Assembly: GCF_030684315.1 (NCBI RefSeq)
Contig: NC_081360.1
Coordinates: forward strand, 36,749,818 to 36,813,817
Source: Stegostoma tigrinum
Lineage: Eukaryota
DNA: 64,000 nt
Reading direction: 5' to 3'
Shown: piece by piece, positions 5,885 through 59,984 of the stretch
Position numbering within the stretch: position 1 is the stretch's first letter
How the letters are laid out: each line of letters begins with the position of its first letter
The notes under the pieces: generated by a model
What the model was told of the DNA's origin: nothing
Databases searched by the model: none
Seen by the model: only the letters and a program-made list of their open reading frames with translations
Position numbers and translations under genes: made by a program

Positions 5885-8800
5885 CTGTAAAGAAAAAGAC
5901 AGACATATTGTAAAAGAGGGTATTGCTTTATTTAATGTTGCAGTGCCACATAGCTGTCCCGAAAAGTACAAATTCTTCATATTGTTAAATGACATTAAAG
6001 ATAACTATTTTCTTGATCATGAAAAGCACCATATCAAACAAGTGAACAGGGCACTCAGGCGAGCATGTGCCTCTGTCATTCTGTGTTACAATTCTGCAAC
6101 TTCCTTGAAGGCTTTCCCTATCTTGGAGGTACCCTGTAACAACAAAGCTAAAAAAAGCATTTTTTAATCATGAGAGATTCCATGTCACTGAAAAAGGTCT
6201 ATGTACAAAAATACACCCTGAAAATTCTGCTCACATTTTGATAGCTGGGACAAATTTCAGCACAGCAGCTAAGACAGTTTATAACATGTTAAAACAACCA
6301 TCAGTCTACAAGAGACAAGCCATGACATCCTAAAAACAAAAGTAATTTATCCTATCTCCTGATATTAACAGGTTCTTTAAAAATAAATCCAGGATCAAGA
6401 TCTGCATCATTTCTAAAACTGAATCAGTTCTTCCTTGGAACAACACCTATCTGTCTACCACATTTTTTTGAAGTATTCCTATTAGCTTTTGAGATATATG
6501 GTGACAGACAAACTAGGGGTCAAAACATTACTTGCTCTCACCCTCAGAGTGGAGGCAATGACTCTTCATCAAGAAACGCTCATCTTAGTTGACCTATTGA
6601 GTTATAATCTAATATGACCTGATTACAACACCTAGTCGTTTCTGAAATATTTCCAGGACTTTTCCCTCCTGTACTCTATCAGGAATCACATCCCACATGT
6701 TACTCAATTTTGTGAAGAAGAATTTGCTGTTACCTATTCCAAAATCGCTCTTCTCTCACTTCAACATGTCCTTTTGCTTTACTTCCCGAAGTTTAACCTA
6801 AAGTAACACTATGAACTAACTCTTTTTTAAAAATTTGAGCTTATTTGATTTATAGATTTATAAACAAACTCATATTGCATGTTTTCATTTAAATCCTATG
6901 GTTCTCCTCGACTTTTAGCCATTCAAATCCAGCCAGCCAATTATTGACTCAGGGCTTTTTAGTACTCTAGACAGATGAAACTAGTTCTGGAGCTCCAGTC
7001 TTCAGTGCTACATTAAGGTTGTTGTCAAGACCCAACCACTTAGCAGTATCCAATGTCTCATTTGTTTCTCGATCATACATGCTGTAAATTAAACGCCTGA
7101 ATACTGGCAGTTGCAAAGGTAGGGATTTCCGGAGGAGTCTGAGATGAATTATCCATCCACTTAACACTGGCTAAAGATGGTTGAAAACACTTTAACATTG
7201 CCTTTTGCACTGACATCTGCATTCTCCTGTCATTGAAGATGGCATTTTTTTTTATCTTCCGACTGGTTGTTTACTTGTTCACTGATATACATTACTGAAC
7301 TTTGATTTGATCAGTTGGTTGAGGGATTAAGTAACACCCTTATTAACATCATTGACTGCAGCACAGTCAAGTTGACAAAAAAATGTATATACTAACTACA
7401 TACAGTACAGGGAAGAGCTATGAGGTTGAGATAACAAGGTGTAGAGCTGGATGAACACAGCAGGCCAAGCAGCATCAGAGGAGCAGAAAAGTTGATGTTT
7501 CAGGCCTAGACCCTTCTTCAGAAGAAGGGTCTAGGCCTGAAATGTCAGCCTTCATCTCCTCTGATGCTGCTTGGCCTGCTGCATTCATCCAGCTCTACAC
7601 ATTGTTATCTCAGATTCTCCAGCATCTGCAGTGCCTACTGTCTCCAGAGCTATGAGGTTTATCATCAATGTCAGGGATTTGAGTTGTGAAGAAGGAATGA
7701 AGAAATTTGGTATTGCAAGCCTAAAAAATAGATAATTGAGAGATTATCCTATGGAAGTATTTCCTATTAGATAAATTTTTCTTCATATTTTAAGGGAAGA
7801 GCTCTTTTTCATAGGGAACTACCTTTAGATTGTACCAGGAATGCATCTTAATCTTGTTATTGTTCCAGCTCCATAATTATCTGTACCCCTAGCTAAGGTG
7901 TTCCAGTACAGGTACAGTGCTGGCATCTCATTGGCAATGTAGAAAATTCCAAGTCTGTACTGTCAACAAGAAGCACCAAAAACAACAATCATCTCATGAG
8001 TTCACTCTTGAGTGACAGATGTGGTTGTCAATAATGCTATCACTGGCACTCATTGGCTACAGCCAAAGTCACTCAGATCCTGATTTTATTATAGTCTTGG
8101 TTCCAACATTGACAAAAGAAGTAAATTCCAGAGGTAAGGCGAGAATGATTGTCCTTGACATCAATACAGCAAACAACTGAATATGACATTTAGGAATCTT
8201 AACAGAACTGAAGTCGATGCAAATCAGAAGGAAAATTTGCACCAGTCATAGTCATTACCTGGTACAAAGAAAGGTGGTTGTGGTTGTTAGAGATAATCCA
8301 TCATAGTCTGCGTTATCATGGTAGGCTTTCTGCAGGGTAGTGGCCTAGACGCAAACATTTTCAACTGCTTCATCAGTGCACTTCCTTCCATAATAAGATT
8401 AGAAGTAGGGATGTTTGTTTGTTTTCTTTACAGTGTATAACGCTCAACACAATTTGTCCCTCCTCATTAACTCAAGCAGTTTATGTCCATATACAGCTGG
8501 ACCTGGACAAAATTCAAATTTGGGCTGATAATTGTCGAGTAAGCACCATACAAAATCCAGCTAATGGTCTTCTTCAACAAGAGAGTACATAATTATCTTC
8601 CTTTGACACCAAATGGCATTTCCATCACTGAATCCCCCACAATCACATCTTGGGGGGTCACCATACACCAGAAACTGAACTGGGACCAAAAATATAAATG
8701 CTGTGGCTATCAAGGAAGACAAATGTGAGGAATTCTGCAATGAATGCCTCACTTCCTGTCTTACCAGGGTCTGTCGAGCATCTGGAAGACACAAATCTTG

Positions 8801-11800
8801 GCACCTCATCCACCAACTTCCACATTCACTCCTTCTACCAAAACATAGTAGCAGCAGTGTGTACCATCTAGAAGATGCACTGCAGTTACTCAACAAGGCT
8901 TCGTTAACAGTACCTTCCATATTCATTACCTCTCTCATACTTTTTTATGGTAATTGTAAGTGTTTTAAAATCCCCTCTACTTTTCAACTCTTGATGCACC
9001 ATTATTTCTGGAGTTTTATTTGCATCTTCTATAGTAAAGTGAGACATAGCATTTCTGTTCATGCATTTTCTGATGTTTCATGATGGATTCTCCAGAATCT
9101 CTCTCTCTCAAGAAGCAACACCCACTTAACTTGCTCATTTTCTTTGTAAATGCTTGTAGAAATTCATACTATCTGTTCTGATATTTCTAGCTAGTTTTCT
9201 CATGTACTCTAATGTCTTTCCCCTTATTAGTACTTTACTTCTTCTTTTCTGTTGTTAATATTCTGATCTGTCACTGCTTTTTGTGGAATTGTACACTTTT
9301 TCATCCAATTTGATACTATCTTTAACTTCCTTAGCGCAGGTAGTGGAGTTCCCTTAGAATTATTTTGAGAATACAGTCCCCTATGAATTTTGACATTAGT
9401 TGTGACTCCTATTCTTGTACGTACCTGGTCTTCCCTCAGGAGATGATGTTGTTGCATTTCTGGCTCATTAATGAGGGCAGACATTTAACAGTCAAGTGGG
9501 GCTGAGTTTGGATCTGTGCAGAGATTGACATTCCCTAAAAGTAACATTATGTTTGGACCTCGATATCTTCCCATCCACCTCCAGGTTTTAGCCAGACAGA
9601 TTCAAAATGATAGGAAATCTCTGTTTAGCTCTTTTGATAAGATCTTTAATTATTCATATTAGGTCATTAACATCCCTTTCAAAACCCAGCGGACCTATTT
9701 CTCACAGATAATGGGAACTGCAGACGCTGGAGAATCCGAGATAACAAAGTGTGGAGCTGGATGAACACAGCAGGCCAAGCAGCATCTTAGGAGCACAAAA
9801 GCTGACGTTTCGGGCCTAGACCCTTCATCAGAAAAGCATTTCTGATGAAGGGTCTAGGGCCTATTTCTCAAACTGTCAGCAACTCCCTATGGACACTGAG
9901 GTAAATGCAGCTGGCAGTGCTTCTTCACTGAAATTACCATGCTGGGAAGACTTTGATCCAAAACAATAGTGATGAAATATTAAAAGACAATTGCACCAGG
10001 AATGCTTCATGTGATAACAGATATTATACATATATAAATAATAAAACTTATTCAAATTTGAAACTTATTTTTACTTTGACTTTTCAAAGATATACTTAGG
10101 AAAAACATTAACATCTTGGGGAATTATCAATGCCTGCCAAGATGAAATATTCAATAATACAGAATTAACTTTTAGATAGAGGAGTTCGAAGAAGGAATAA
10201 TCAACCTGACATGTTAACTCTGTTTCTCCCTCAACACATATTTTGGTGACCTGGACATAAGCTCTATCTATAATTTTGTAGTAACTAGAGGTACACAACA
10301 TAGAAGGTCCCTGAAACAAATTAGAGTTTAAAAGAGTCTCTAAAATTTACTTGGCGTGTGGGAACTGAGGGAGAATCGTAGAGAACACCAGGATTCACAA
10401 AATACTTAAAGTTGCAACTGGCACTAGCATTGACAATAGCAAGTTAGGTGAAGTCAGACTAAGGAAGCAAACAACGAGGCCTAAATCATGGTTACTGTGC
10501 ATGTATGCGAATGTGCAGAGTACGATAAATAAGACTGGGGACTAACGTGTGGAGATTGCCATGTGGAATTTTGATGTTGTGACATGTTACTATACTTTGG
10601 GTAGCATCTCTTTCTTTGGTAAAGACAGATGCAAATAATTCATTTAATACCTGTACCATGACCCAAAACTATGATATTTTGTTAACAGAAATCTAGCTGA
10701 AGGAAGGGCAAGACTGGGTTTTAGGTATTCAGAAAAGACAGAAAGGGAAGGAAAGTAGGAGGGGTAGCAGCTTTGGTTAAGGAGGATATTGGAGTGCTGA
10801 AGAAAAAAAGAAAAGGATGTCTCATAGGATCCAAGCTCAAAATAAATTTGGCTAAAACAAAGGGACAAAAAGGTACAATTAAATTGTTAGGTGTGGTTTA
10901 TAAATCACAAAATTAGAAAGTAGTTATAATGGAAGACTTCAATCTCTAAACATAGCATACCAGTATCCAATCTAAGGGCAGTGAGAGGCAAATGTTTCTG
11001 GGTTGCATGCAGGAGAGCTTCGTACTGTTTTCAGTCCAGCTAAAAGGAATGCACAGCGGAACCTGATTCTTGGAAATGAATTGGGCCAAGTGGATCAGTG
11101 TCTTTTGGGAATCATTTGGGAGACAGAGTTCATTGTATCATTAGATTCAGATTAATAGAGGAGAATAACACACAACAATCCAAAGTGAAAAAAATCAATT
11201 AGCAGGAGCCTGTTTACTTTCATGGGCCAAGAACAGAGTTGGCAGCATTGCTTGATACAAAAGGTTGACAGAAAAGCAGGAACGGAACAATGGATACCAT
11301 CAAAGAAGTTAATTCAGCTATGGTCCAGGTACATTAATTATGTCTATTTCTATCTCTAATATCATACGTAAGTTTGCAAAAATTACCAAACAAGCTGCTA
11401 CTGAGAGCAATCTTTACCAGAAAATGGAGGCAGGAGCCTGCTCAGATCTGGAACTTTCTTCTTCCCCCTCAATGCAATAAGGAAAGGTATAAGAAAGGCA
11501 ATTAGTTTGAGGTAGGCAACGTTTCTGTGAATCTCTGCTTTCCTCTCCAGGTACTTCTCAACAAGTTTCTGCTGGAGAATCAGCCTCTGCTGTAACCGCT
11601 GATAGGCCACCAGATCAATTTCTTCTTCTGTAAGTCTTACTGCATTACTAAGGCTGTAAGTTGCGTCATACATGAACACATTTTGGTACTGCCTTACATA
11701 GGTAATATAAGGGTTGATTTGCAGTAAACAGTTGTTCACATAATGCATAAATAACTTCATCTCTTCACAGTTGTTGGGATCATATGTTGGATCAAGGAAT

Positions 11801-14800
11801 ACATCAGTACTATAGATGCCTCTGTAGTCGGGATCAGTTGAAATATCTATAAGGCCTGCATAGGGAATAAATCCTTTATTAGGAATATCTTCTTGCATTA
11901 ATTATTTGGAACATAAAACCTATAGAAATTACAAAACACAAAGAAGTAATTCAGCCTGTTACACATAAATAGGTGAATATTTTTACAAAAGGTAAACATT
12001 TCACCAATCTATATTGTTTAACTCATGTGTACTAAAGGTTAGAAATAGCCATTATTTTCTATTGTACTTTATATTTATTACAAGTTTGACTTTTACATGG
12101 CATTGGCAAATATATATCATACATTTCATCAAGTTTGAAACATTAGGTTAGATGCAAAATAAATGTCCCTCCACTCTGGTTCAGGTCACAAGAATGCTAC
12201 TATCACATATTTTTTAATTTCCTACACTGAGCAATCACTGCTCTACATTGAGATTTTCTACAGCAGGTTGGGGAAAGGATTTTTAGCCCCCCTTGTTACG
12301 TTCCAAAAAGGGAGACTGAAATATTAAACAACAGCGGCTGCTTTAATAAAGGTGTGTTCACTCTGTTGACAGAGAGGTTAGGCTAAGTTGTTACATCCAC
12401 AATCATGACATCAGGTGATAGGACTCATAAAGTGTCAGTTCACCATACTTATCAAATATACAACATCCCTCTCCCTCTACATCAGAGGTTCCTGCATTGA
12501 AATCATTCACAATATTTCTAAGCATATATAAAAATGTCATTGAGTAATATGTTCCAGAAGAAGTCAATTCCTGTGCAGTTGTCAACAAACTTCAGGCATC
12601 TGTTTATTTTTCTCATTGGTGTTAACTTTTGGAGTTGTAAGTGTACTAGGAAAATCATCTGTGATAATGGGAACTGCAGATGCTGGAGAATCCAAGATAA
12701 TAAAATGTGAGGCTGGATGAACACAGCAGGCCCAGCAGCATCTCAGGAATACAAAAGCTGACGTTTCGGGCCTAGACCCTTCATCAGAGAGGGGGATGGG
12801 GTGAGGGTTCTGGAATAAATAGGGAGAGGGGGGAGGCAGACTGAAGATGGAGAGTAAAGAAGATAGGTGGAGAGGAGAGTAAAGGTGGGGAGGTAGGGAG
12901 GGAATAGGTCAGTCCAGGGAAGACGGACAGGTCAAGGAGGTGGGATGAGGTTAGTAGGTGGAAGATGGAGGTGCGGCTTGGGGTGGGAGGAAGAGATGGG
13001 TGAGAGGAAGAACAGGTTAGGGAGGCAGAGACAGGTTGGACAGGTTTTGGGATGCAGTGGGTAGAGGGGAAGAGCTGGGCTGGTTGTGTGGCGCAGTGGG
13101 AGGAGGGGACGAACTGGGCTGGTTTTGGGATGCGGTGGGGGAAGGGGAGATTTTGAAGCTGGTGAAGTCCACATTGATACCATTGTGCTGAAGGGTTCCC
13201 AAGCGGAATATGAGTTGCTGTTCCTGCAACCTTCGGGTGGCATCATTGTGGCACTGCAGGAGGCCCATGATGGACATGTCATCTAAAGAATGGGAGGGGG
13301 AGTGGAAATGGTTTGCGACTGGGAGGTGCAGTTGTTTATTGTGAACCGAGCGGAAGTGTTCTGCAAAGCGGTCCCCAAGCCTCCGCTTGGTTTCCCAAAT
13401 GTAGAGGAAGCCACACCGGGTACAATGGATGCAGTATACCACATTGTCAGATGTGCAGGTGAACCTCTGCTTAATATGGAAAGTCATCTTGGGGCCTGGG
13501 ATAGGGGTGAGGGAGGAGGTGTGGGGGCAAGTGTAGCATTTCCTGCGGTTGCAGGGGAAGGTGCCGGGTATGGTGGGGTTGGAGGGCAGTGTGGAGCGAA
13601 CAAGGGAGTCACGGAGAGAGTGGTCTCTCCGGAAAGCAGACAAGGGTGGGGATGGAAAAATGTCTTGGGTGGTGGGGTCAGGTTGTAGATGGCTGAAGTG
13701 TCGGAGGATGATGCGTTGTATCCGGAGGTTGGTGGGGTGGTGTGTGAGAACGAGGGGGATCCTTTTTGGGCAGTTGTGGCGGGGGCGGGGTGTGAGGGAT
13801 GTGTTGCGGGAAATGTGGGAGACGCAATCAAGGGCGTTCTCCTCCACTGTGGGGGGAAAGTTGCGGTCCTTGAAGAACTTGGACATCTGGGATGTGCGGG
13901 AGTGGAATGTCTCATCGTGGGAGCAGATGCGGCGGAGGCGGAGGAATTGGGAATAGGGGATGGAATTTTTGCAGGAGGGTGGATGGGAGGAGGTGTATTC
14001 TAGGTAGCTGTGGGAGTCGGTGGGCTTGAAATGGACATCAGTTACAAGCTGGTTGCCTGAGATGGAGACTGAGAGGTCCAGGAAGGTGAGGGATGTGCTA
14101 CAGATGGCCCAGGTGAACTGAAGGTTGGGGCGGAAGGTGTTGGTGAAGTGGTGGAACTGTTCGAGCTCCTCTGGGGAGCAAGAGGCGGCGCTGATACAGT
14201 CATCAAGAGGTGGGGTTTGGGGCCTGTGTAGGTGCGGAAGAGGGACTGTTCCACGTAACCTACAAAGAGGCAGGCATAGCTGCGGGCCATGCGGGTGCCC
14301 ATGGCCACCCCCTTAGTCTGTAGAAAGTGGGAGGAATCGAAAGAGAAGTTGTTGAGGGTGAGGACGAGTTTGGCTAGGCGGATGAGGGTGTCGGTGGAGG
14401 GGGACTGGTCGGGCCTGCGGGACAGGAAGAAGCAGAGGGCCTTGAGGCCATCTGCATGCGGAATACAGGTGTATAGGGACTGGACGTCCATGGTGAAAAT
14501 GAGGTGTTGGGGGCCAGGAAATTGGAAATCCTGGAGGAGGTGGAGGGCGTGGGTGGTGTCACGGATGTAGGTAGGGAGTTCCTGGACCAAAGGAGAGAAA
14601 ATGGAGTCCAGATAGGTGGAGATGAGTTCGGTGGGGCAGAAACAGGCTGAGACAATGGGTCGACCAGGGCAGGCAGGTTTGTGGATTTTGGGAAGGAGAT
14701 AGAAACGGGCCGTGCCGGGTTGGGGAACAATGAGGTTGGAGGCTGTGGGTGGGAGGTCCCCTGAGGTGATGAGGTCATGAATGGTGTTGGAGATGATGGT

Positions 14801-17800
14801 TTGGTGCTCGGGTGTGGGGTCATGATCGAGGGGGCGGTAGGAGGTGGTGTCGGAGAGTTGGTGTTTGGCCTCGGCGATGTAGAGGTCAGTGCGCCATACT
14901 ACCACTGCGCCGCCCTTGTCTGCGGGTTTGATGGTGAGGTTGGGGTTGGAGCGGAGGGAGCGGAGGGCTGCCGTTCTGAAGGGGAGAGTTTGGAGTGGGT
15001 GAGAGAGGTTGAGGCGGTTAATGTCTCGATGGCAGTTTGAGATGAAGAGGTCGAGGGAAGGTAGGAGGCCTGGGGGTGGTGTCCAGGAGGAGGACTTGTG
15101 TTGGAAGCGGGAGAAGGGGTCAGTGGAGGGAGGGTTAGGTTCCCGGTTGAAGAAGTAGGCATGGAGGTGAAGGCGGCGGAAAAACTGTTCTATGTCCAAC
15201 CGTGACTGGTATTCGTTGATGTGTGGTTGTAGGGGGACAAAGGTGAGCCCTTTGCTTAGGACTGACTGTTCGTCCTCAGTTAGTGGAAGGTCTGGGGGAA
15301 TGGTGAAGATGCGGCAGGATTCAGTGTGGCAGTCTTCTCTGGGGTTGCTGGCTGTGGAGGTTGTGGGCGGAGCAATGAGGTTGTCAGCCGTGGGCGGGGT
15401 TCCGTCGGCCGTGGGCAGGGTTCCGTCAGTGTCGGCTGTGGGCAGGGTTTCGCTTTGCAGAACACCTCCGCTCAGTTCGCAATAAACAACTGCACCTCCC
15501 AGTCGCAAACTATTTCCACTACCCCTCCCGTTCTTTAGATGACATGTCCATCATGGGCCTCCTGCAGTGCCACAATGATGCCACCCGAAGGTTGCAGGAA
15601 TAGCAACTCATATTCCGCTTGGGAACCCTGCAGCCCCATGGTATCAATGTGGACTTCACCAGCTTCAAAGTCTCCCCTTCCCCCACCGCATCCCAAAACC
15701 AGCCCAGTTTGTCTCCTCCCCCCACTGCACCACACAACCAGCCCAGCTCTTCCCCTCCACCCACTGCATCCCAAAACCAGTCCAACCTGTCTCTGCCTCC
15801 CTAACCTGTTCTTCCTCTCACCCATCCCTTCCTCCCACCCCAAGCCGCAACCCCATCTCCCACCTACTAACCTCAACCCACCTCCTTGACCTGTCCGTCT
15901 TTCATGGACTGACCTATCCCCTCCCTACCTCCCCACCTATACTCTCCTCTCCACCTATCTTCTTTTCTCTCCATCTTCGGTCTGCCTCCCCCCTCTCCCT
16001 ATTTATTCCAGAACCCTCGCCCCATCCCTCTCTCTGATGAAGGGTCTAGGCCCGAAACATCAGCTTTTGTGCTCCTGAGATACTGCTGGGCCTGCTGTGT
16101 TCATCCAGCCTCACATTTTATTATCTAGGAATATCATCTGTTGTCTTTTCCCGACATGAGTGAATTTACAGAAGTTCGCACAATGTCATGGTGTTCTCCA
16201 TTGAACTGCTGTTTTTCTCACATGCTCCAGTTACTGACCTATCATTAGGTATACCTGGGTCTCTATTTGGCACAATTATTTGTGGATCTTCTATTAATCC
16301 TGGTACCTAATTCTCGCCAGTTGGAAAACATGGTGTTTGGCCTTGTTCTCCCATTAGGAAACCCGGTTCTGTTGTTTCCTGTCAACAATGGGTGGTTTTA
16401 GCAAAACAAATGCCTGGCACAACTGAAACTTTAATGCTAGCAATACTAGAAAACTTTGATTAGTTGAATAGGTTGGATTCTGTTATGCTAACAAAAATTG
16501 GCTCAGTTCTGGGTTGCTGCTGTGATTTTACCACAAATTTCTATGTCTATCACTTTTGATAGAAGTTGATCATTTATATATACTTCTTAACTTGTCTGCC
16601 CACAATAATTTAGTATGCTGAGAAATGATTGCAATTGCCGGTGTCTCAGTTACGGCTCTTACTTTTGATGGTGATTTGAGTAGTCCCTTAGCTTCAATAA
16701 CATAATAAATCTTTGAGGGAAGATTTCCTCACTCTAATCGTAATGTCCAAGTCTCTTCAGAGTAGCATCCAAATTGTGCAGATGCTGTTTCTCATTTCTC
16801 CCCATAAGTGAAATATTATCTGAGTAACACTGGACCCCTGTCAATCCACTTAAATCTGATGCCTGCCATGTTGGAATACTGCAGGTGCAGATGCGCTTCC
16901 AAATAGACGTCTCTTGTATTTGAATAGTCCTTTATGTATTACAATCATTAAATATTTCTGTGATTCAAAATCTGCATTCCTCAGAAGATAAACTTGACAA
17001 CGGTCAATTTTACTGAAAACTGGACCTTCAGCTAGTCCAACAGATAAGTCATTGCTTAAAGTCAAAGGATACTGTTCAGTACACTATACCATATTAATAA
17101 TGACCTCAAAGCCATTGCTAATGCAAATTGATCCATATTTCTTTACTGCTGATGAGAGATGTGGCCTAATCACTCACCTTTATGGTTTGGGCACTTCTGT
17201 TTGACCTGCCTCTGTAATTCTGCCTCAATCTCTGGTCTGATTGCATGTGACATTTTGCTTGATTCTCATCTTTGATTCTGAATTTGGCAGATATCTTTTC
17301 CATACTTCAGAGATCCCCATTGAAAACAATGGCACCTTTCTTTAGAATTTGTGATAGATCAGTCTCAGAACTTGACAAGAAACTTACTTCAACCCAGTTG
17401 AATTTGATTTTCTCTAACCATGTTCTTCTAACAAATTTGGAAGATGCCCTTTGATAATTTGTAAGCACAAATCTTCAGACTGACCGTGTAACTGAACATT
17501 CACATTGATACAATCCCTTAAAGGCACCACTTGGCCAATGCACAGTCTTAGGGCAATTTTTGAGGACTGCAATGCAATGTGACTCAGCCGCTTTTGATAC
17601 ACCATTTCAGGTATAAATGAAACTGCCAATCAAATGCTCATCTCTATTCTTCTCATTTTACCATTCAGTAAGGGGGTGACTGGATCTGGATTGGTGATAC
17701 CAGCAATGACCAATATGTTTAATAAGAGCTCCTCTTTCGACAGTGAGGTGGGACTTTACTCTACCTCTTTTGTGCCATGTAGATTTTCTTTCCACTCTTT

Positions 17801-20800: not shown

Positions 20801-22699
20801 TGACATATGGGTTCATGCACACCTGTGGCATTCACTGCCAGATGTTCCCTTCCGTCATGCTACAACTAAGTGGCTGCAATGGTAGCGATGACTTCAGAAG
20901 CATGTCATCTACCTGAAGTTTCATCCTCCAACTCAGTGACTGTCACAGTCAAGATCCTCCTACTTTGTCTGCAAATCTCTGTAAATAGATACCCACTGAG
21001 GTGAGGTAGTACTTATGGGCTGGTGATGTGACAGTGCATTCTCTAAGGCTTCCTGCTACTCTTGAGAGGGTGTTTGTGCCCCCATGTCTCTCTAGCTTTT
21101 TGCCCTTTGGCTTGAGTGGACATGCAGATTAAAGGGTCATGGGCTTCCCATTGCTCTGTTCCAAGCAATTGTTAGTATGAAGCGCAATGTATCTGAATTT
21201 AATCACATGTTGCTGCACTTGTCCAATTACACTTGTGGCACCATTTCTATGGTTGGGGGTGCTTCCATGGCTACTGACTACCTCTACAAATTCTTTCTAG
21301 ACTTGCTTGATCAGTTTCCTCTTTGGAGACAGTAGGAACTGCCAATGCTGGAATCTGAGATAACAACGTGTAGAGGTGGATGGACTCAAGAGGCCAGGCA
21401 GTATCAGAGGAGCAGGAAAGCTGACGTTTCGGGTCTGGATCTTTCTTCAGACCCTTTCCTGAAGCAGGGCCCAGACCCAAAGCTCCTCTGATGCGGCCTG
21501 GCCTGTTGTGTTCATCCAGCTCTACACCTTGTTAATAAAATGTGAGGCTGGATGAACACAGCAGGCCAAGCAGCATCTCAGGAGCACTCCTGAGATGCTG
21601 CTTGGCCTGCTGTGTTCATCCAGCCTCACATTTTATTATCTTGGAATCTCCAGCATCTGCAGTTCCCATTATCTCTACACCTTGTTATCTCAGTTTCCTC
21701 TTCCTTGTTTTATCCCTTGGAAATAAAATCTCCAGCTTTGCCCTTGCAGCCTTGATAAAAGCCTACAAAGCCATGGTGTCACCTTTGTCTTCCTTCTGCC
21801 TTTGTGATACAGTTTTTCTTTAAATTCTTGGGATTCTAAGTAGGCTGTCACTATTAATAAGGGGTGGATAACATTTTACAAATTGTATCAACATTTGCAA
21901 TGCTATTACCTGATGTTGCCTTTGCATTCTCACTGTTCGGGTCCTATGTCACTTTGCTATAAATTGACTGGCAGACAGAATCTTGCATGTGCCTGAATGG
22001 TCGCAACCTGCAGCCTAGCTGCAACTATTTGTTAGTTTTAATATTGCCCACTTTTTATATTTTTATCTTCAGAGATATCAATAGCACTCTATATTTACCT
22101 ACAACACAAAACTTAGTGCTGTTTAACAAAAATCAATTTATTTAACAAGTAAAATATCTCAGAACTGTACCTGCTTTAAGGAATTCAGAAGGTATATCTG
22201 CCCCTAATTTTGAAGTTCCATCGATGTTGATTTCCAGATTAGCACGCCATATTTCTGAAAATCGTTTTCTTTTATCAGTTGGCATGTAGGCTCCATGCCA
22301 AAGTGCTTTCATAGTGTAGTCCACATTTATCAAAATTTGCCCAATTAGTGTATCATGATATGCTGGCGACAGGAGACATGTAGTACTACAATCATAGTTG
22401 CCATCTAAATAAATAGTTGGAACTTGGTTTAGAATATAAATACCTATCACCAATTCTCGCAAAATTTGTTGAACTTCTTTGTAATTCAATGGAGCATCTG
22501 GTGCCATAGGAGTTAGAATTACAGCACTGGAATAACTGAAGTCTTTCATTTGGCTTGAGAGCCCAGTAGGGTACTCTATTGGAAGGTGAAACTTATCAAT
22601 GGGCTGCAACCATGTACAGGAAGTTATGGTCAGCAATTCCTGTAGATCACTCAAGTTATATTTGCCAAGGACAGCACTTGCACTCATTTGCCCTGCCAT
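5721..22699 (-). CDS. ANKAR: Ankyrin and armadillo repeat-containing protein, 5' part (3 coding exons; gene presumably continues beyond left edge)
   Basis: Exons 22699-22171, 11855-11418, 5884-5721 join in frame via GT-AG (377 codons). Peptides ILRELVIGIYILNQVP, YHDTLIGQILINVDYTMKALWHG, DPTYDPN, YQRLQQRL, KTERELPP, YFHLHGGIEFDI match the ANKAR N-terminal region as I recall it; neighbour of ASNSD1 as in other vertebrates. Confidence 0.9.
7428..7645. mobile_element. Short fold-back element derived from Penelope terminus
   Basis: Inverted arms; 14-bp TSD agagctatgaggtt 7414-7427 / 7646-7659. Confidence 0.85.
9705..9859. mobile_element. Short Penelope-terminus element
   Basis: TSD cctatttctca 9694-9704 / 9860-9870. 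Confidence 0.85.
9804..9831 (-). ncRNA. Minimal hammerhead ribozyme core in short Penelope derivative
   Basis: Identical intact core CTGATGAAGGGTCTAGGCCCGAAACGTC. Confidence 0.65.
11418..11855 (-). CDS. ANKAR: ANKAR second coding exon (438 nt, phase 1-1)
   Basis: Acceptor tgcag|GCCTT, donor TCTG|gtaaag; GLIDISTDPDY...SRLLPPFS. Confidence 0.9.
12663..16124 (-). mobile_element. Penelope-like retroelement (RT + GIY-YIG), 5'-truncated, with inverted copy of its 3' end; disrupted
   Basis: ORFs 14042..15508 (KPADKGG, PKIHK, GRPIVS, TMDVQSLYT, KGVAMG) and 13017..13886 (VVYCIHC..LYIWETKR..RFAEH); ~15451-16124 is the reverse complement of ~12695-13370; TSD ctagga(a/t)atcatctgt-type at 12646-12662 and 16125-16141. 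Confidence 0.92.
12760..12787 (-). ncRNA. Minimal hammerhead ribozyme core in Penelope terminus
   Basis: Identical intact core; inverted partner at 16034-16061 (+) ends GAAACATC. Confidence 0.7.
18660..20360 (+). mobile_element. Decayed Gypsy-type LTR retrotransposon fragment
   Basis: TGTAAT-starting LTR-like region, gag start MPLFEKLDPFNPAIED, RT remnants (EDLYAKLA..LSFTKLDISHA) with many stops. Confidence 0.6.
21324..21689. mobile_element. Nested pair of short fold-back Penelope derivatives
   Basis: Outer TSD tcagtttcctctt 21311-21323 / 21690-21702; inner element 21535-21672 with TSD ctctacaccttgtta 21520-21534 / 21673-21687. Confidence 0.8.
22171..22699 (-). CDS. ANKAR: ANKAR first coding exon
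   Basis: ORF 22142..22699; in-frame TAA just upstream of ATG 22699; acceptor tttgtag| at 22770; donor GCAG|gtacag after 22171. Confidence 0.9.
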
Positions 22700-23444: not shown

Positions 23445-23638
23445 GGAAACAAAGTGTGGGGCTGGATGAACACAGCAGGCCAAGCAGCATCTTAGGAGCA
23501 GAAAAGCTTTTCTGATGAAGGGTCTCGGCCCGAAATGTCAGCTTTTGTGCTCCTGAGATGCTGCTTGGCCTGCTGTGTTCATCCAGCCCCACACTTTGTT
23601 ATCTTGGATTCTCCAGCATCTGTAGTTCCCATCATCTC
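23445..23638. mobile_element. Short fold-back Penelope derivative
   Basis: TSD tttaaac(a/t)aagtcaa 23430-23444 / 23639-23653; hammerhead core 23512-23539. Confidence 0.85.
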
Positions 23639-29115: not shown

Positions 29116-30315
29116 AAAAAAAAATTCAAAACCAATGAAAGGTACTGACAAGAAGCATTTAATCAGCAACAATGTACTCACTGATGCTCAATTTGGCTTC
29201 TGTTAGGACTAATTTGTTCCAAGCCTAACTACAGTCTCGGCTCAAACATGGACTAAAGAACTGATGGCCAGACGTAAAGTGAGAGTGACTGCCTTTGACA
29301 TTAGGGTAGTGTTTATCTGAATAAGGTCTCAAGGAACCTAACAACATTGAAATTGTTGGGAATTGGTCCAAAACACTTCACTTATTGAAGTTATACATGA
29401 TACAAAGGAATAAAGCAAAGAATTGCAGATGTTGAAAATCTGAAACAAAAACAGAAATTGCTGGAGAAACCCAGCAGGTCTGGCAGCATCAGTGGAGAGA
29501 AAGCAGGGTTAACATTTAGAGTTGAGTGACACTTCTTCAGAACTGGTAATAGTTAGGAAGAGGTGGTCTATATACTGAAGGCAGGGTGGGGGAAGGAGTA
29601 AACGGATAGGCAGAGATGAAGCCCAGAGACAGAACGACTGTTGGATGTCAAAAGGATGGATCAGCATTACCAGAGAGAAAGCATACCACGGAAGGAGGTT
29701 GTCAAGTTCTGAAACACGGTATTGAGTCTGGAAGGCTACAAGGTCCCCAAGTGGAAAATGAGATGAGATAAGCTTTCAAGAAAGGAATTTGGTTATGGTT
29801 GGAGGGTGTCGAACCTGTCGCCCTCTGCAGAATTTCATCAGAGTAGTTTTCTGGATCCAGCCATCTTCAGCTGTTTCATCATTGCCATTATTTCCATAAT
29901 GATGTCCATTTTCCCCTTCTTTTCCCTGTTAGCAGTTTGTCCTGTTCCGTGTGACTTTTGATTAATCTTACAAACATATTTTATTTCAGCATAAAGGCTA
30001 GTCGAAATAGTGAACCCGTACCTGGGTTTGTGCAGAAGATCTGAAGATAGAAATAAAATACTTAAGCATCTTCCATACTGCTTCCTAAAGGATTTTTAAA
30101 AAAACAGTAGAACAGTGAAAAGCACCAAAATATGGAATTATTGCAACAGCGAGATAGAAAACGGCCTGGAACTAAACTGAGTATTTCATGATTTTAAATA
30201 GTGTTGGTGGGTTGTTCTACTCACTAACCAATGTTGAGCAATGCAAGCTGAAGCAACGACATCGGCTAAAGTATGGAACTGACATAAAATCAGTGTTGTA
30301 TGTTGATTGATTTAA

Positions 30316-45243: not shown

Positions 45244-45596
45244 GATAGTAGGAACTGCAGATGCTGGAGTATCTGAGATAACAAGGTGCAGAGCTGGATG
45301 AACATAGCCGGTCAAGCAGCGTCAGAGGAGCAGGAAAGCTGACATTTTGGGCCTGGACCCTCCTTTTAGAAAAACCCGGAAGGGTGTTCTGAATAAATGG
45401 GGGGTGGGGTGGGGTGGGGAAGGCAGATAGAAGACGGATAGAGGAGAATCCTCTATCCATCTCCCCCCCCTCTCTATTTATTTCAGAATCCCCTTCCCCT
45501 TCCCTGAAGGGGGGTCCAGGCCCAAAACATCAGCCTTCCTGCTCCTCTGATGCTGCTTGACCTGCTGTGTTCATCCAGCTCTACGTCTTGTTATTC
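45244..45596. mobile_element. Fold-back Penelope derivative between convergent 3' ends
   Basis: TSD ctagctttttaaa 45231-45243 / 45597-45609. Confidence 0.85.
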
Positions 45597-46744: not shown

Positions 46745-47000
46745 CTAATCTATCGAGCTTTGTGATAGCCTGTTACATTTATCAGAAGCCTTTTCTTTGT
46801 GGTTTTCCATCTTTGCAATGCGAGATCCAAACTGCATGGCTCTCTTTGGGAGAACAGCAGATGCTGTAAGTCCAAGTTCCTTTGCAGCCATTCGTAGAAG
46901 CAATTTTTCGCCGATCCCTCGAGGCAGAGTCAAGTCTGCTTTCTCCCACACAGGAAGTGAATTCAGAAAAGAAACAACTGCTTCATCCAAAAACGGAAAT
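46745..47000 (-). CDS. ASNSD1: ASNSD1 last coding exon
   Basis: tttcag|ATTTCCG; FPFLDE...SQSSID*; candidate polyA signal on minus strand at 46444-46439. Confidence 0.93.
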
Positions 47001-50000
47001 CTGAAATGACAAAGATTTAAAATGTTTAACAATTTTATCATATGTATCTTGTATAAAATTCCTTAACCATTCATTCAATTTTTATATTACCATTTCCTCC
47101 CTAACTGGCTTTATGCTGAGCTTGAAGTGCTATGTACACTATCACTCAAGGTTAACAACAGAGGGCAATGATGGCAATCAGAGGAGATGCCAGTGATTGC
47201 CTCAGTGAAACTGTACCAGTCAGATTGTCTTTCTAGCACGGTAAGAAGCTACAGGATAAACGTATAATGATATCTACTAACTATACCACAACTCACCTTT
47301 TTAAAATGCTTGTTTTTTTTTGCTTTATGTACTGTTAAAAATGAAAACAACCTGAGTTATGTCAAATACTATTGTATTTCTCAAAAAACCAAAACTGCAG
47401 ACAAGAAAAAATTGTCAGTATACAACTGCTGGTCCAACACCATTGGTATTGTCGGAAACCAAGCAAGATACAAGCCCACGTGGCTGTGTTTTTCCAGATC
47501 GTGAAGACTGCTTAAGTGAACTGGCTAGTTACATCTCATGTTACTTCTGATTTAATTACTAAATTGTGTCTGTTTGTCTTCGTAAGATTGAGGAGTAGAA
47601 TTTTTAAAAAAAAGAGTTTAAATCAAACATTAGATTACTAGATATAACTTTGCTCTGTTAAAGTTATTATGAATAAATTGTTAATTTTGTTTCCACTATA
47701 TTGGTGCCTGTTATCAGTTATTCAAAAAAGTTGATCAGGAATTCTTTGGAGCTTTGTGTTGCAAATACAGGGATATGGAGGCTGATTTGATTTGGCTTTC
47801 TGTCATAACACCAATTATAACCATAAAATTCAAAAGATCATTAACCCCAACTGGTTCATTAATGTCTTTTACAGATGGCTTATACGTGACTTGAAACCAA
47901 TGCAATGTGGTTGACTGTCAGCTGCTGTCTGAAATATCCTAGCAAGCCACTTAATTACAATCACACTGCAAAAAAAAACTTGAAAGAACCACTTTGCATC
48001 AACCCAGGCACCAGCAACAACAAAAATCTAAATGTCTCAACAGCAGGACAAACCCAGCAGAGGTAGCAGTACAGTGGTATACATTTGGGAGGGAGCTGCC
48101 TTAGGAGTCCTCAACATTGACTCTGGACTGCAGGAAGTCTTTTAGCATCAGGTCAAAGACCACATATGTAAAGTCTGCTGCTGCTGAGTTAAAAGTACAT
48201 GGGCAATCTTCAATTTTAAACTTCAGCTTTCTCTTGAGTTTGCAACAAAATTTGCATTCAGTGGTGAATTATAATGCATTTTTGCATTACAACATGTTCA
48301 AAGTTGGCACAGACGTACCTTGCCTCTTTTCCATGGTCTCCAATGACTCGGTCATCTCGCCCAAGATTACGTGAGGAAATGCGTCCAAGTTCCATCCCCA
48401 GTTCTTTGACTAGGCCTTCAAAACCTGATGTTTTGTAGCAGACACGGTGACGAGAATAACCCGCAAGTTGTTCATCAGCTCCAATCCCAGTCAATACCAC
48501 CTTTTAAAAATAAGTCCATAAAGATTTTACTCCAGAATCTAAAATTAAAATGTACTACTGTTCCAGAAACTAATTACTTTACATAGTAAAGCAAATTCTG
48601 TTTATACCAAGCCATATTTACATAGGCCAAAATGTGCATCTTAATTTTAGATATTGAGACTTCAAATTACTAAATATTGAATTTAAACCTGTGGTTATCT
48701 TTTAGCATAGTTGAACATGCAGCTTGTTGCTGCAGTAAAATAAGATCAACTTTGAAACCCATTTAATAAACTGTTGCAAAGTGAAGTTACGTGGGTTTCA
48801 CAATTTTTGCAGCATTATCAAATGTTGTTTTGATGAAAATACAATGGACAGAGGATATAGAGAGAAGTTGTGGCAGTTGAGGGAAAAGAAAAAGTACAGC
48901 TTGTTTAAAACTCCAAGTACAAACCAGGAAAATCATCCTATTTCCAGTCATTCATGGTCTGTAAAAAAATAAACTAAGTTTCATCACAGCACCCTCAGTC
49001 TCAAACTGGAGAATGGAGACCTGGTTTCCTCAATTACTTCATTACTACAAGTTTGCCATTCCAAGGATTTGTTCGGCAAACTTTACTACAAATTTATCCT
49101 TCCTTGGATAAGGTGAACAAAACTACACAGTACTCTGGGTGAGGTTTCACATGGTTCTGTGTAAATACAACAAGGCCTCTTTACGTCTGTACTGATTTCC
49201 TTAAAATGAATTGTCAACATACTGTTTTTGCCCCTCTATTTGCTTGCTGCACGTACATGCCAGCTTACAGTGACTCGTGGACAAGCACGCTCATTCTTTT
49301 GGATATATACATTTCCCAACCTGCCACGATTTAAGAAGTCTTCAGCATTTCTAATTTTTTTTGGCCAAAGTGAATACCTTCCCACTTATTTACATTTTAT
49401 TTCAGCTGCATTTTCAAACCTGGGGGTCTGAAAACTAGTAACTGTTCCTCTTGCATCTCCATGCCAATGATGACCCAACCATATCTTATGCTTTTTCCTA
49501 TGTTCTAATCCTGATGAATGCAAAAAAAGCTTTGACATCATATTGTCTTTTAGCAATGTTTAAATTCTTTGAAGCTGCCTAAACCCCTAAGGGCAGATCA
49601 AAGACAAAATCTATTTGAAGAACAGTAGTGAAATGTTGAACAAAATCATTGGGAGCAACCATTTTCTTCTAGATCAGTCTGATTAATTGAGGGCCTCATT
49701 TCATTTTAAGATTAGTTTGTTGAAATTAACGCTAAATTCCTCAATGATGTTGAATGCAGGAAGTTTCTTTGTCGCTTTCTACATATGACTTAAAAGAGTA
49801 CACAAAACAATAAATTATGTGGTGTGTTTCTTTTTCAGGCAAGAGAATAAGTGGAGGTAGAGATTTTTGCGTTCAAAATGCGGGATGAAAATTATTCTTT
49901 TAGGGATAATATCACACCTTTGCACAGCTTATATATGGTTGGATTTCTCCATTACTTGTCCTGGTACCAATACCTCTTGCAGCAAACCACACAGCACAGC

Positions 50001-51357
50001 CAATGCTGTCATCCAGTACTGTGTCCAAAGGTCGCACCAAATGACTAATCCGCTGTTGTCTCATTTCATTCAGCTCTTCTAATGTGATATTGATTTCTAC
50101 AAAATTCCAATTTCTGGCAGGGTTTATAATTTGTAATTCTTTTAAACCTGACAGTCCACTGATCCGGTCAGGCACATTAAAACTAGTTGTCTCTTTAAGA
50201 CCACTATTGTCCTCTTGTAGAGTTTCCTCTTCAAGTGCCCTGGAAGCATTGCTTTTCTTTTGTTTCGCTGAGGTCTTCTGCTGCTTAAAGGCAACATTCA
50301 ATAGATCAATAGGTTCATCTTGTGGAATATGATGGTCAGCCAAGGCTGCGAGAACCATAGAATCAACACCGCCAGAAAACAGAATAGCAACATTTGCTTT
50401 ATTAGACACTGTGAACTGGGATGAGGGGTGAATTTGACATCTTGGTAAGAAAAGCACTCGACGTCTAACAGATTCACTCAAAACATTAATGAACTGAAGA
50501 ACTAATTTCTTCTTCTTTTCATCTGAAAGAAAACTCTCAACATTTACTGAAGATGCTTCACTATCTGCAGTGTCAACACATGTCTCACACACACTGTAAT
50601 TCATTGGAGTAATGGGTGCTATAAGGAAAAGTTTTGATCCATTCAAAAATACAGAAACAAAACTAGGTAGTTCTTCAATAAACTGAACATCTTCACCTAA
50701 ATGTAAAGTCTTGAATTCATATTCAATGGACCTATATTTCCATGGATACCATGATATTGCCAATGAATTGCCACCGGTGTTTCTCTGGAGGTCAATTTTG
50801 TAAATTCCACGTGCTGGTACTTCCTGCCAAGGAATATTTCCATACTTGGAAACAGACTGACTCAGACTCACTGATGTAAGTGTAAGATAGAGATTTCCAG
50901 CATTCTTAAACTGCCACAGTAAACTACGCCGACCAAAAAAGTCTCGACCAAACCACAAGCAGTGACTGAATGCTTGGTAGTATATAAACGTCCAAGGTCC
51001 TTGAATAGCAGAAAAGACAGACAGAGTGGATTCTTCATTCTTACATGAAGACAAATGTTGAAGAATAATCTGAGTGTCATTGCCTTCGGGTCCAATTTCA
51101 ATTCCTCCAAAAACCTCCCCATTCCAAAGGAGAAGGTTTCCCTGAGTGTCCTGCAGAGGTTGTGGCTTTAGGCACCCTCTCATATGAAGCACATGACCAG
51201 AGAAAAATATATTATAACCCAGTTCAGGCACTTCCTTGGATAACTGTTGACTGCAGTTAGGTCCTCTCCGTTGTAGGCTTTCAAGCGTATCTTTTCCCAA
51301 AGTATTAGAAATACCTTCCTGAGGGTTTAGAACTAACATACAACAAATACCACACAT
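46745..51357 (-). CDS. ASNSD1: Asparagine synthetase domain-containing protein 1, 625 aa, 3 coding exons
   Basis: Exons 51357-49918, 48500-48319, 47000-46745 (1878 nt). N-terminal MCGI (Ntn amidotransferase), [63 protein letters not shown]. Confidence 0.96.
48319..48500 (-). CDS. ASNSD1: ASNSD1 middle coding exon
   Basis: taaaag|GTGGTA...GCAAG|gtacgt; [19 protein letters not shown]...GKEAR. Confidence 0.93.
49918..51357 (-). CDS. ASNSD1: ASNSD1 first coding segment (within exon 51485-49918 shared with ASDURF)
   Basis: 481-aa ORF in track; donor AAG|gtgtga after 49918. Confidence 0.95.
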
Positions 51358-51420
51358 TTTGTGTGTGTTTCAATTTACTTAGTAATTTCAATCAAGAACA
51401 AATGTTGATCTTGCTGTTAG

Positions 51421-57400: not shown

Positions 57401-58803
57401 TCCACCACACTTAAACCATCTCGTCTTTACAAATAGATTAAAATCAATTAGGTTTCCCCAATTCGCAATAAACAACTGCACCTCCCAGTCACAAACCATT
57501 TCCACTCCCCCTCCCATTCTTTAGATGACATGTCCATCATGGGCCTCCTGCAGTGCCACAATGATGCCACCCGAAGGTTGCAGGAACAGCAACTCATATT
57601 CCACTTGGGAACCCGGCAGCCCAATGGTATCAATGTGGACTTCACCAGCTTCAAAATCTCCCCTTCCCCCACCGCATCCCAAAACCAGCCCAGTTCGTCC
57701 CCTCCCCCCACTGCACCACACAACCAGCCCAGCTCTTCCCCTCCACCCACTGCATCCCAAAACCAGTCCAACTTGTCTCTGCCTCCCTAACCTGTTCTTC
57801 CTCTCACCCATCCCTTCCTCCCACCTCAAGCCGCACCTCCATCTCCTACCTACTAACCTCATCCCACCTCCTTGACCTGTCCGTCTTCCCTGGACTGAGC
57901 TATCCCCTCCCTACCTCCCCACCTATCTTCTTTTCTCTCCATCTTCAGTCTGCCTCCCCCTCTCTCCCTATTTATTCCAGAACCCTCACCCCATCCCCCT
58001 CTCTGAAGAAGGGTCTAGGCCCAAAACATCAGCTTTTGTGCTCCTGAGATGCTGCTGGGCCTGCTGTGTTCATCCAGCCTCACATTTTATTATCTTGGAT
58101 TCTCCAGCATCTGCAGTTCCCATTATCACTCATAGGTTTCCCCATTAATTTGATTCCAAATTACCAGGACAGATCTGTTCTCAATGCTTTAAAATTGATT
58201 TTGGATCACTTTTCCAAGCTGATTTAAACTCTAAGAATAGCTAACCACTCAAATGGTTGTTAAAATAAAGATTTTACGATTTCTGCATTTAAAAATAATA
58301 ATGTGCAAACTGTCAAGGCTCCTACGTTTAGCGGGTTACTTACACGGTAAAGATTCACATCAAAGGCAAGCCTGAGAAATCAGTTCAAACTATTTTCATT
58401 TTTGAAACGTTGTAAAAATTCAAATGTGAAACGGTTCAAGATGCATTCAAGAGAGAACTGGATGATTCCGAACATGCAAGGGATGGCGAAAAAGCAGGAG
58501 GTTGGCACTCGGTAATATTGGTCATCTGAAAAGCTGGTGCAGGCACGAGGGGCCGACTGGCATCCATCTGCACACGCAGATTTTGATTCTACGGCTGCCA
58601 AAGTGAAGGACATATCTTGCAACCCTGTAGCAGGGCAGGTTCACCAGGGAATTGTTACTCATGGGTATGGCTCCTGCTGCCAAAGCGACGTGGCTAGGAA
58701 CAAGTTCTTGTTAACTCTGAATTGCTAGGAATCATACCTGTTTACTTAATTCTTCTCTCCGGACTCCCTCACTATCTGCTACTTTGCTTGAGACGGCCGC
58801 CAT
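51421..58803 (-). CDS. ASDURF: ASNSD1 upstream ORF protein (prefoldin-like, PAQosome subunit), 86 aa, 4 exons
   Basis: Exons 58803-58738, 54862-54809, 53074-52999, 51485-51421 (261 nt, GT-AG): [86 protein letters not shown]. Closely resembles human ASDURF as I recall it ([34 protein letters not shown]). Confidence 0.93.
52999..53074 (-). CDS. ASDURF: ASDURF exon 3 (76 nt)
   Basis: tttcag|AGAGTT...AAAT|gtaagt. Confidence 0.9.
54809..54862 (-). CDS. ASDURF: ASDURF exon 2 (54 nt)
   Basis: ttaacag|ATAAAA...CGG|gtaagt. Confidence 0.9.
55460..55505 (+). pseudogene. Degenerate 3' half of a tRNA-Ile(AAT)-like sequence
   Basis: gtggtattaatgccaaggtcatgggttcaatccccatactgacca resembles the 3' half of vertebrate tRNA-Ile(AAT) with CpG decay; 5' half missing. 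Confidence 0.45.
55598..55910 (+). mobile_element. V-SINE (HE1-like)
   Basis: cagcacggtggctcagt head plus V-domain. Confidence 0.7.
57461..58132 (+). mobile_element. Penelope-like element 3' fragment in ASDURF intron 1
   Basis: Same sequence as the right arm of the 12.6-16.1 kb element; 12-bp TSD taggtttcccca 57449-57460 / 58133-58144. Confidence 0.9.
58738..58803 (-). CDS. ASDURF: ASDURF coding exon 1
   Basis: gtgATGG Kozak context; donor CAG|gtatga. Confidence 0.85.
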
Positions 58804-59060: not shown

Positions 59061-59219
59061 ATAATGGGAACTGCAGATGCTGGAGAATCCAAGATAACAA
59101 AGTGTGAAGCTGGATGAACACAGCAGGCCAAGCAGCATCTCAGGAGCACAAAAAGTTTTTGTGCTTCTGAGATGCTGCTTGGCCTGCTGTGTTCATCCAG
59201 CTCCACACTTTGTTATCAC
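59061..59219. mobile_element. Short fold-back Penelope derivative next to ASNSD1 promoter
   Basis: TSD tgtcactcactatg 59047-59060 / 59220-59233. Confidence 0.85.
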
Positions 59220-59984
59220 TGTCACTCACTATGTTGCGTCTGGCGACCAAAACTAAAGGAAATTGAAAAACATATCCTCAAACCACTGGTAACACCTATG
59301 TTGCATGGAGCAAGAATAGCATTTCAAACTTTAAACAACAAAGTCAAAATAAGTCTAAAGTTGTAGAAAATAAAGTAGATTTAATTTCTCAGTTGGTTTA
59401 AAATAGCAGAAATAACAAAAACAAAGAGTCCAGAAAATTAAGGAACATTCTAGAATTGTTTACAAAAATGTTAGAACCAAACCCACTCAAAATTTTGTCT
59501 GTGATCCTGCAATGCACAGGTTAATCTAATTGGCCATCATTTGGCAAGCAACAGGATCAAAAAATTGTAGCAGTTATTACAAATTTCAAAGCTCAACGGA
59601 AAATATTTGAAATTAAACATCACAGTTAAACTTATTCCAGCCAACAGTTGTATCAACCCATGTATAAATAATTAATTAGAAAATGGTTGTACACAAAACA
59701 AAATAAAAAATTATTCAGTTCGTAAAAAGTCTGTCACAAAAACATTAAAAAAAACATATCAACTAAATCATTGTAAACCATAATATTTCTCTGCCTGAAA
59801 CAAGTAACATCCATAACTTTTGTGTTCAAATCTGAAAAATTCTTATGTGAGTAGCAAATAGTCAATTCCAAAATGTCTTATGTTATCTTCTCTAAGTTGG
59901 TAACTCCCTTAACTTTTATGCAAGAAGGTGATGTATTAAAAAATAACGAGCAATATAAGTTAATATTGCAATTCGTAAAATCCC

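Follow-up and report, generated by a model that had tools for sequence, protein, structure and literature searches.

The insertions of Penelope-like elements (PLEs) are known to combine an inverted pseudo-long terminal repeat (pLTR), a tail and a target site duplication (TSD) (PMC3846280, PMC8557442, PMC6155905), and the tail has been explained by two internal start sites of the reverse transcriptase (RT) (PMC11167929). The integration of PLEs, the origin of their tails, inverted ends and pLTRs, and the role of their hammerhead ribozyme are stated to be open (PMC8557442, PMC4209133, PMC11167929). Here we analysed a stretch of 64,000 nucleotides of Stegostoma tigrinum (assembly GCF_030684315.1, contig NC_081360.1, positions 36,749,818 to 36,813,817 of the forward strand), called the window below, which holds small insertions consisting of two head-to-head ends of a Penelope element, referred to as fold-backs. 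Judging from the genomic sequence, the explanation that fits them best, and which we regard as probable, is that they are one-off integration products in which two complementary DNAs (cDNAs) were laid down between the copies of the TSD.

The nearest described architecture is that of the inverted pLTR insertions of Penelope/Poseidon elements, such as Pen2a of Adineta (PMC3846280; PMC8557442). The fold-backs share with them the head-to-head inverted, 5'-truncated copy, the 30-40-nt tail on one end only, the TSD and the palindromes at the junction. Compared with Pen2a as described there, the insertion in S. tigrinum often consists of only two pLTR ends (56-237 bp), occurs about once per 20 kb and has a TSD mode of 13-16 bp instead of 8-10 bp, and its breakpoints could be counted to the base.

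In Anolis the protein of the Poseidon element PAc nicks and extends both target strands, starting at two internal sites which bound the tail, and a hammerhead lies about 90-125 nt upstream with an ATG in its core (PMC11167929); all of these features appear to have their counterpart here. In that study neither the 5' ends of the cDNAs nor their ligation was followed, and reads at the ribozyme cut were absent; the genomic ends described below, in contrast, suggest a capped start immediately 5' of the core and a smaller class of RNA that is cut. The core ATG opens the main open reading frame (ORF) in Anolis (PMC11167929), while here it opens a frame of 13 codons only and the long ORF begins 42 nt after the tip.

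A minimal type I hammerhead in the pLTR is also shared with the non-LTR retrozymes (bioRxiv 10.64898/2026.07.22.740005) and with the PLE hammerheads of PMC4209133, which include opposite-strand pairs 100-700 bp apart in Schistosoma. Retrozymes are direct tandem repeats with a hammerhead in each unit, and the available part of the preprint covers direct tandems only, whereas the fold-backs are inverted. The end patterns reported here were not found in print, although figures and supplements of PMC11167929 and of the retrozyme preprint may bear on the 5'-end pattern.

Architecture and abundance of the fold-backs

The elements of the window were located by self-comparison and repeat finding, and two scales were used to place their ends. 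The d scale counts back from the element tip, the C of ATTATC at window 12663 being d1 (the element sense there is the minus strand); the h scale has its zero at the leading C of CUGAUGA, the hammerhead core (h0 = d125 = window 12787), and the predicted cleavage after GUC would leave an RNA beginning at h28. Counts were made in a random sample of 147 stretches of 10 kb (1.47 Mb; 10 adjoining the window and 137 at round positions, 13 large contigs), which was aligned to 36 long template copies and yielded 383 arms. Four of 40 template copies, arms below 35 bits, arms starting beyond d45 and, where stated, locus edges were left out before counting; start sites were scored on 292 arms (at least 85% identical and clear of edges) and end positions on 279. 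Pairing of the arms gave 87 non-edge fold-backs and 168 single arms, some true fold-backs being counted among the latter (e.g. L043, L062, L067).

The starts of the arms are bimodal, with 124 of 292 at d1-3 (tip arms) and 121 at d29-37 (inner arms), the two sites lying 30-36 nt apart. Of 89 fold-backs, 85 combine one tip arm with one inner arm, which departs from free choice with P = 8e-21. Furthermore, the two arms agree in length: both were short in 70 and both long in 13 of these 85 fold-backs, and just 2 were mixed (Fisher P = 1e-13), while in the long pairs the two lengths were correlated (rho 0.88) and 4 of 13 ended at most 10 nt apart. This coupling suggests that the template or the complex, and not each cDNA by itself, determines where copying stops. 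In 26 of the 70 short fold-backs the inner arm outreaches the tip arm on the 5' side by more than 10 nt; therefore these do not represent one snap-back cDNA, unless a later deletion occurred.

A TSD (score of at least 9) was found around 68 of the 87 fold-backs, compared with 1 of 300 mismatched flank pairs serving as the chance control. The sample contains 74 fold-backs shorter than 260 bp, which extrapolates to about 160,000 copies in a genome of 3.2 Gb. The elements of the window are as follows, with the strand where one was assigned.

200..1423: 1.2-kb fold-back of a 523-nt tip arm (element sense minus) and an inner-start arm (d34-768); TSD 183-197/1410-1424, 15 bp from the printed flanks (9 bp by script)
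7427..7645: older-subfamily fold-back, inner-start and tip arms each terminating where the hammerhead core begins; TSD 7414-7427/7646-7659, 14 bp
9705..9859, minus strand: tip arm with snap-back, reaching 5 nt before CUGAUGA and preceded by an extra G; TSD 9691-9704/9857-9870, 14 bp with 1 mismatch, 11-bp exact core
12663..16130, minus strand: 3.5-kb copy with a 2,788-nt tip arm carrying a broken RT and GIY-YIG ORF, and an inverted inner-start arm (15451-16130, d29-708); TSD 12646-12662/16125-16141, 17 bp with 1 mismatch
12663..12698, minus strand: tail, bounded by the start sites of the two cDNAs (tip d1-3, inner d29-37), each of which ends in TTATC
12760..12787, minus strand: minimal hammerhead motif CUGAUGA-A-GGGUC(UA)GGCCC-GAAAC-GUC, predicted cut 12760/12759 (h28)
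12789..12792, minus strand: putative capped RNA 5' end, h-2 to h-5, main site h-4 = 12791, where the 5'-end pile-up and the extra G fall in other copies
21324..21689: older fold-back that carries a younger one within its inner arm; TSD 21311-21323/21690-21702, 13 bp
21535..21673: young fold-back nested in the preceding one, its arms 100% complementary along 52 nt and joined near h35-38; TSD 21520-21534/21673-21687, 15 bp, made of the host element's own sequence
23445..23638: fold-back, inner arm ending at h28 (predicted ribozyme cut), tip arm starting at h-5 after G; TSD 23430-23444/23639-23653, 15 bp with 1 mismatch
45244..45596: 352-bp fold-back, both arms reaching beyond the boundary (h-76/h-63); TSD 45231-45243/45597-45609, 13 bp
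59061..59219: 158-bp fold-back, junction h31/h28 (predicted ribozyme cut); TSD 59042-59060/59215-59233, 19 bp with 1 mismatch, 14-bp exact core
57462..58132, plus strand: single-arm truncated copy, 683 nt; 12-bp TSD

An earlier note on this DNA had listed seven short insertions and two of 1.2 and 3.5 kb, and all were present at the places given, each with its own TSD; as claimed, the TSD varies in length (9-20 bp in the random sample, mode 13-16 bp). Its description of one arm with the tip and one arm stopping near ttatc agrees with the 85 of 89 above and fails for 9705..9859, where the second arm is a 19-nt snap-back copy of the hammerhead region joined to the target. The continuous size series that it had proposed turned out not to be smooth, since the short fold-backs do not extend past a boundary immediately 5' of the hammerhead, and the centres cluster at two hot spots. 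The nested fold-back 21535-21673 was inserted right at the inner start site of the older 21324-21689, with the TSD CTCTACACCTTGTTA, a placement which suggests a liking of fold-backs for the element's own terminus.

Ends of the arms near the hammerhead

Of the 279 arm ends, 71 fall in h-8 to h-1, only 10 in the next 51 nt and 72 beyond h-60, and this pattern is alike for tip and inner arms. The initial expectation of most arms ending at the ribozyme cut was not borne out, as the largest accumulation of ends lies about 30 nt further 5'. The ends in the pile-up tend to be preceded by an additional G: genome-wide, the base before CTCT-CTGATGAAGGGTCTAGGCC was G in 7,848, T in 2,568 and A in 1,314 exact matches, besides 77,439 read-through copies. 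Because many plain G's could derive from the partner arm, G:A ratios were hand-counted with T fixed one base further out, on the first 100 listed matches. The ratio was 90:10 both at h-4 (1,369 matches) and at h-2 (581 matches), and 55:45 at h-5, one base further out (319 matches). In the middle subfamily it was 85:15 at h-5 (first 100 of 140 matches, the locus 9705-9859 being among the matches) and 29:27 at h-6, again one base further out. The genomic background for these counts was 62:38 and 60:40.

Inspection of 25 loci with the extra G revealed that the partner arm or the TSD explains it in 4, that 4 could not be judged, and that in the rest it follows short untemplated linkers. Additionally, in three loci which came from a search outside the random sample (L202, L203 and L205), the ORF positions +336, +216 and +382 are joined to h-2 to h-5, each after G, as would be expected if the RT changes template at this point. 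In L1 and SVA an untemplated 5' G has been interpreted as the copy of a cap (PMC4859970), and the Penelope pLTR is reported to contain a transcription start site (PMC8557442). From these two precedents together with the pile-up and the extra G, we infer a capped transcription start at h-4/-2 in the pLTR.

A second, smaller set of ends was recognized at the predicted cut. Perfect palindromic junctions were counted genome-wide at 1,057 loci for h-4 and at 727 for the AGCT beginning at h28, whereas the control palindromes gave 39 (ACGT five bases upstream, a count lowered by CpG decay) and 24 (GGCC). The non-palindromic ends, normalised for base frequencies, numbered 756, 3,665, 1,623 and 1,042 at h27, h28, h29 and h30 respectively, the h27 count being accounted for by chance extension from h28. 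The peak at h28 and the cliff upstream of it match the predicted cut rather than the base of a hairpin at h29-30. On balance we lean towards hammerhead cleavage at h28 in vivo; the cut RNA would then be a minor template class, in agreement with uncut RNA as the main substrate.

Formation of the fold-backs and alternative explanations

Past the tip the autonomous element runs on for 42 nt before the long ORF begins (L180); the tip therefore lies within the RNA, like its counterpart in Anolis. According to the proposed model, both target strands would be nicked, with a stagger of 13-16 nt, and each would prime a cDNA at one of two fixed positions inside one RNA. If this RNA were linear, the two cDNAs would run off the 5' end, after about 95 and about 128 nt if it were capped, giving strong-stop products, or after 63 and 97 nt if it were cut by the ribozyme, and both would then be trimmed and joined by host repair. 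If the RNA were continuous across the pLTR, as a tandem read-through or as a circle (a circular or tandem template has been proposed in PMC4209133), both cDNAs could run on and produce the 0.35-4-kb series and the partial tandems. The tip cDNA would have to displace the inner cDNA or to use a second RNA in the same complex, and the fold-backs, without sequence beyond the tip, would be dead ends. Self-priming seems to occur as well, as the inserts of the 9705-9859 type show a short snap-back in place of the second cDNA. The complete chain, in which paired strong-stop cDNAs come from capped RNA starting at the first stem of the hammerhead, the hammerhead cuts in vivo and productive long insertions need the other cleavage product as ligated circular (or tandem) RNA, is put forward tentatively.

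The minus-strand strong-stop DNA of LTR retroelements is likewise primed about 100-130 nt from a capped 5' end and runs off as a short cDNA which needs a template change. Here the primer would be the target DNA and two cDNAs would be made, unlike that process, and tRNA primer, RNase H and integrase have no part. The formation of the fold-backs works like L1 twin priming, but it is not L1 twin priming: in L1 the second primer site is internal and variable and the arms do not overlap, whereas here the second site is fixed (d29-37), the overlap of the arms is almost complete and poly(A) is lacking. The priming of cDNA by both target nicks, the inversion within a TSD and the microhomology joining of two cDNAs with small indels would be common to both (PMC4859970).

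It should be emphasized that a number of observations weigh against the model or against its parts. The best match of an arm was its own partner in just 16 of 58 cases, which leaves a single shared RNA molecule apparently unsupported by arm identity. Single-arm inserts exceed fold-backs (168 to 87) and a TSD was scored in only about 30-31 of them; some of these singles are missed fold-backs, and many stay unexplained. As regards the cap, the G excess is weaker in the oldest subfamily (72:28 and 61:39, with backgrounds of 56:44 and 51:49), internal controls starting with CT are also somewhat G-rich, in small numbers (28:10 at h+12, n = 38; 6:3 near h75, n = 9), and part of the excess may come from GCT microhomology. 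As regards the cut, 60 of the first 100 matches at h28 have GG or AG before AGC and are explicable by microhomology to the partner arm; once these are set aside, a hand count leaves a peak about 2-3 times as high as h29/h30, one-base deletions contaminate some classes, and in the random sample 12 of 279 arms end at h28-31. The minimum-energy fold contains a hairpin (h0-5/h24-29) whose base near h29-30 could stall the RT, and the predicted 5' region folds no more stably than shuffled sequences do (z 0.8). Finally, Frangieh et al. found in Anolis no RNA-seq reads ending at the cut, and cleavage was unneeded in vitro (PMC11167929).

Some of these points would be accommodated if twin cDNAs were made and the pile-ups were RT pause sites, at the entry into a C-run upstream of the hammerhead and at the hairpin base near h29, with the G added through microhomology or terminal addition. 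Although the main stop sits just before a C5 run, later C-runs are without pile-up (10 ends in 51 nt), and although the hairpin is part of the minimum-energy fold, the second peak is at h28 and not at h30. The G in 34 of the 47 CT-start controls and its weak excess in the oldest subfamily speak for such an origin, but the excess is position-exact and moves by one base with the subfamily; moreover, independent pausing predicts many mixed short/long pairs, where 2 of 85 were seen. We regard pausing as an unlikely source of the pile-ups.

Self-priming as the general route, argued by Arkhipova et al. 2013 (PMC3846280), supposes that one cDNA folds back and is copied and that the endonuclease resolves the hairpin, leaving the tail on one side. 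Equal arm ends are predicted by it too, palindromic centres are indeed common, and short snap-back copies exist (window 9705-9859, L068), but the 26 of 70 fold-backs whose tail-less arm reaches further 5' call for a second cDNA or for a deletion afterwards, inserted bases occur in 42 of 70 junctions, and both strands are extended in vitro (PMC11167929). For the fold-backs as a whole this route seems decidedly improbable.

The twin-cDNA model treats each fold-back as a separate event, and the junctions agree with this. All 70 short tip-plus-inner fold-backs of the random sample have distinct junction coordinates and strings; the two ends overlap in 25, are blunt in 3, and are separated by 1-5 inserted bases in 26 and by more in 16, several inserts copying sequence beside the end, much as end-joining repair would do. 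Short and long arms are present in all four subfamily classes scored, and both arms were of the same class in 27 of the 30 loci where both could be typed. The earlier note was right in seeing products of the Penelope integration pathway which inform on its mechanism, while its other suggestion, a self-propagating hairpin or ribozyme RNA family, is not supported, these 70 showing no repeated junction string. It had also proposed that shared breakpoints would mark a family; two junctions do recur genome-wide (at the 727 and 1,057 loci counted above), but the 727-type is spread over several subfamily backgrounds and is therefore a hot spot, so that the shared-breakpoint test would mislead for these fold-backs. 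A polar junction, AAAAGTTTTT, which appeared in 13 of the 30 best matches to 59061, was rejected as a selection by the query, being absent from the first 100 unbiased matches, 97 of which had AAAAGCTTTT.

Miniature inverted-repeat transposable elements (MITEs) have a TSD of fixed length, symmetric terminal inverted repeats and a uniform size and centre; here the TSD varies, the tail stands on one end and the junctions are distinct, and the long copies with a read interior (window 12663-16130, L180) carry the RT/GIY-YIG ORF, no dedicated transposase search having been made. A self-propagating non-autonomous family, MITE- or retrozyme-like and moved by either the Penelope protein or a DNA transposase, is very unlikely: the extrapolated copy number, the two junction types recurring hundreds of times and the relatively commoner short arms of the older subfamilies would suit it, but not the 70 distinct junctions, the variable TSD, the asymmetric ends, the AGCT junction on several subfamily backgrounds, the variant shared by both arms of a locus, and the lack of sequence beyond the tip, whose counterpart the Anolis assay needs. 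The fold-backs are a variant of a known architecture, not MITEs and not a new mobile family.

The parent element, further repeats and significance

The ORF of the parent element contains in this order the motifs KPADKG, LPKIHK, RPIVS, FTMDV and GVAMG, then VYCIHCTRC..YIWET..H..H, a series which we take to be an RT followed by a C-terminal GIY-YIG. Its first match in the Atlas was a GIY-YIG nuclease (0.97), together with HTH_animal; the Pfam search of pieces of the ORF gave no relevant match and the PDB search none. As in endonuclease-bearing (EN+) PLEs, a single ORF holds the RT and the C-terminal GIY-YIG (3.5-kb window copy), partial tandems form pLTRs (junctions of pLTR, 5' untranslated region and ORF in L180, L183, L184, L187, L195 and others), and a 30-40-nt tail on one end goes with an inverted truncated copy at the 5' end and a TSD. 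The minimal hammerhead motif, 98-125 nt from the tip, comprises CUGAUGA, an extra A, a G-C closed stem II (retained in most loop variants), GAAA, a palindromic ACGU and GUC. It agrees with the minimal hammerhead described in the PLE pLTR (PMC4209133), and the Rfam search of the hammerhead region gave no relevant hit. The domain order and a hammerhead and tail geometry resembling that of PAc point to the Penelope/Poseidon clade.

A 27-nt tandem repeat (TPPTADG-like) of variable copy number lies in the N-terminal part of the ORF (amino acids 240-290 in L180; also in L187). The ATG within the hammerhead core (window 12745-12784, minus strand, and copies) opens the 13-codon frame MKGLGPKRQLLYS 7 nt after the putative cap, and cleavage at h28 would remove this frame. 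About 25 nt upstream of the hammerhead, all subfamilies have a polypyrimidine tract ending TTTATTCCAG/TTTATTTCAG (window 12813 region, minus strand), which presumably resembles a 3' splice site; as the cause of the arm boundary a splice acceptor was ruled out, there being no AG at the boundary. In the Penelope of Drosophila an intron ends at the hammerhead (PMC4209133).

Direct tandem mini-elements with units of about 420-540 nt and a different deletion in each were seen in L087:6755-8434 (G000:C13), L185, L196 and L206. The unit (about 440 nt in L087) runs from the pLTR end through the tip and 170-200 nt of 5' sequence to the deletion, and the L087 array also has an inverted arm and a TSD. 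Such arrays may be a record of rolling-circle copying; those of L087, L185 and L196 seem to fit more-than-unit copying without proving circles, and they fit the direct-tandem layout of retrozymes better than the fold-backs do.

Two further inserts of the window, for which no TSD was found, are a complex one with short repeated inner-start fragments preceding a tip arm (63620-63732) and one in which 73 nt from the interior of the ORF adjoin a tip arm of 119 nt (3546-3744). Another, older repeat family, which shares the hammerhead layout (CTGAAGAAGGGTCACTGGACCC..AAAC) and has a different terminus, occurs at 28579, 29420-29546 and 46390 and in L035 and L038, and its copies also seem to start just 5' of the core. 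The regions 32668-34392 (minus strand) and 41627-43198 are presumably fragments of CR1/L2-like long interspersed element reverse transcriptases; 49912-51369 (minus strand) and 46745-47062 we take to be host exons resembling an asparagine-synthetase-domain protein, and 31711-32016 presumably resembles a nucleotidyltransferase exon.

The fold-backs are an unusually sharp record of the Penelope insertion mechanism. As aborted products they make steps of integration readable from DNA, namely the use of one start site of each kind, the shared stop, the cap signature and the peak at the cut site, and each of these end patterns gives a nucleotide-exact prediction. If the proposed model is true, about 160,000 fold-backs would form a base-resolution fossil record of the capped RNA end, of the ribozyme cut and of a complex priming at two sites. 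The hairpins would be misannotated as MITEs or as unknown repeats, and the counting of ends can be applied to any Penelope-rich genome. Among retrotransposon enzymes the Penelope RT is the nearest relative of telomerase, which lends a broader interest to the way in which it primes.

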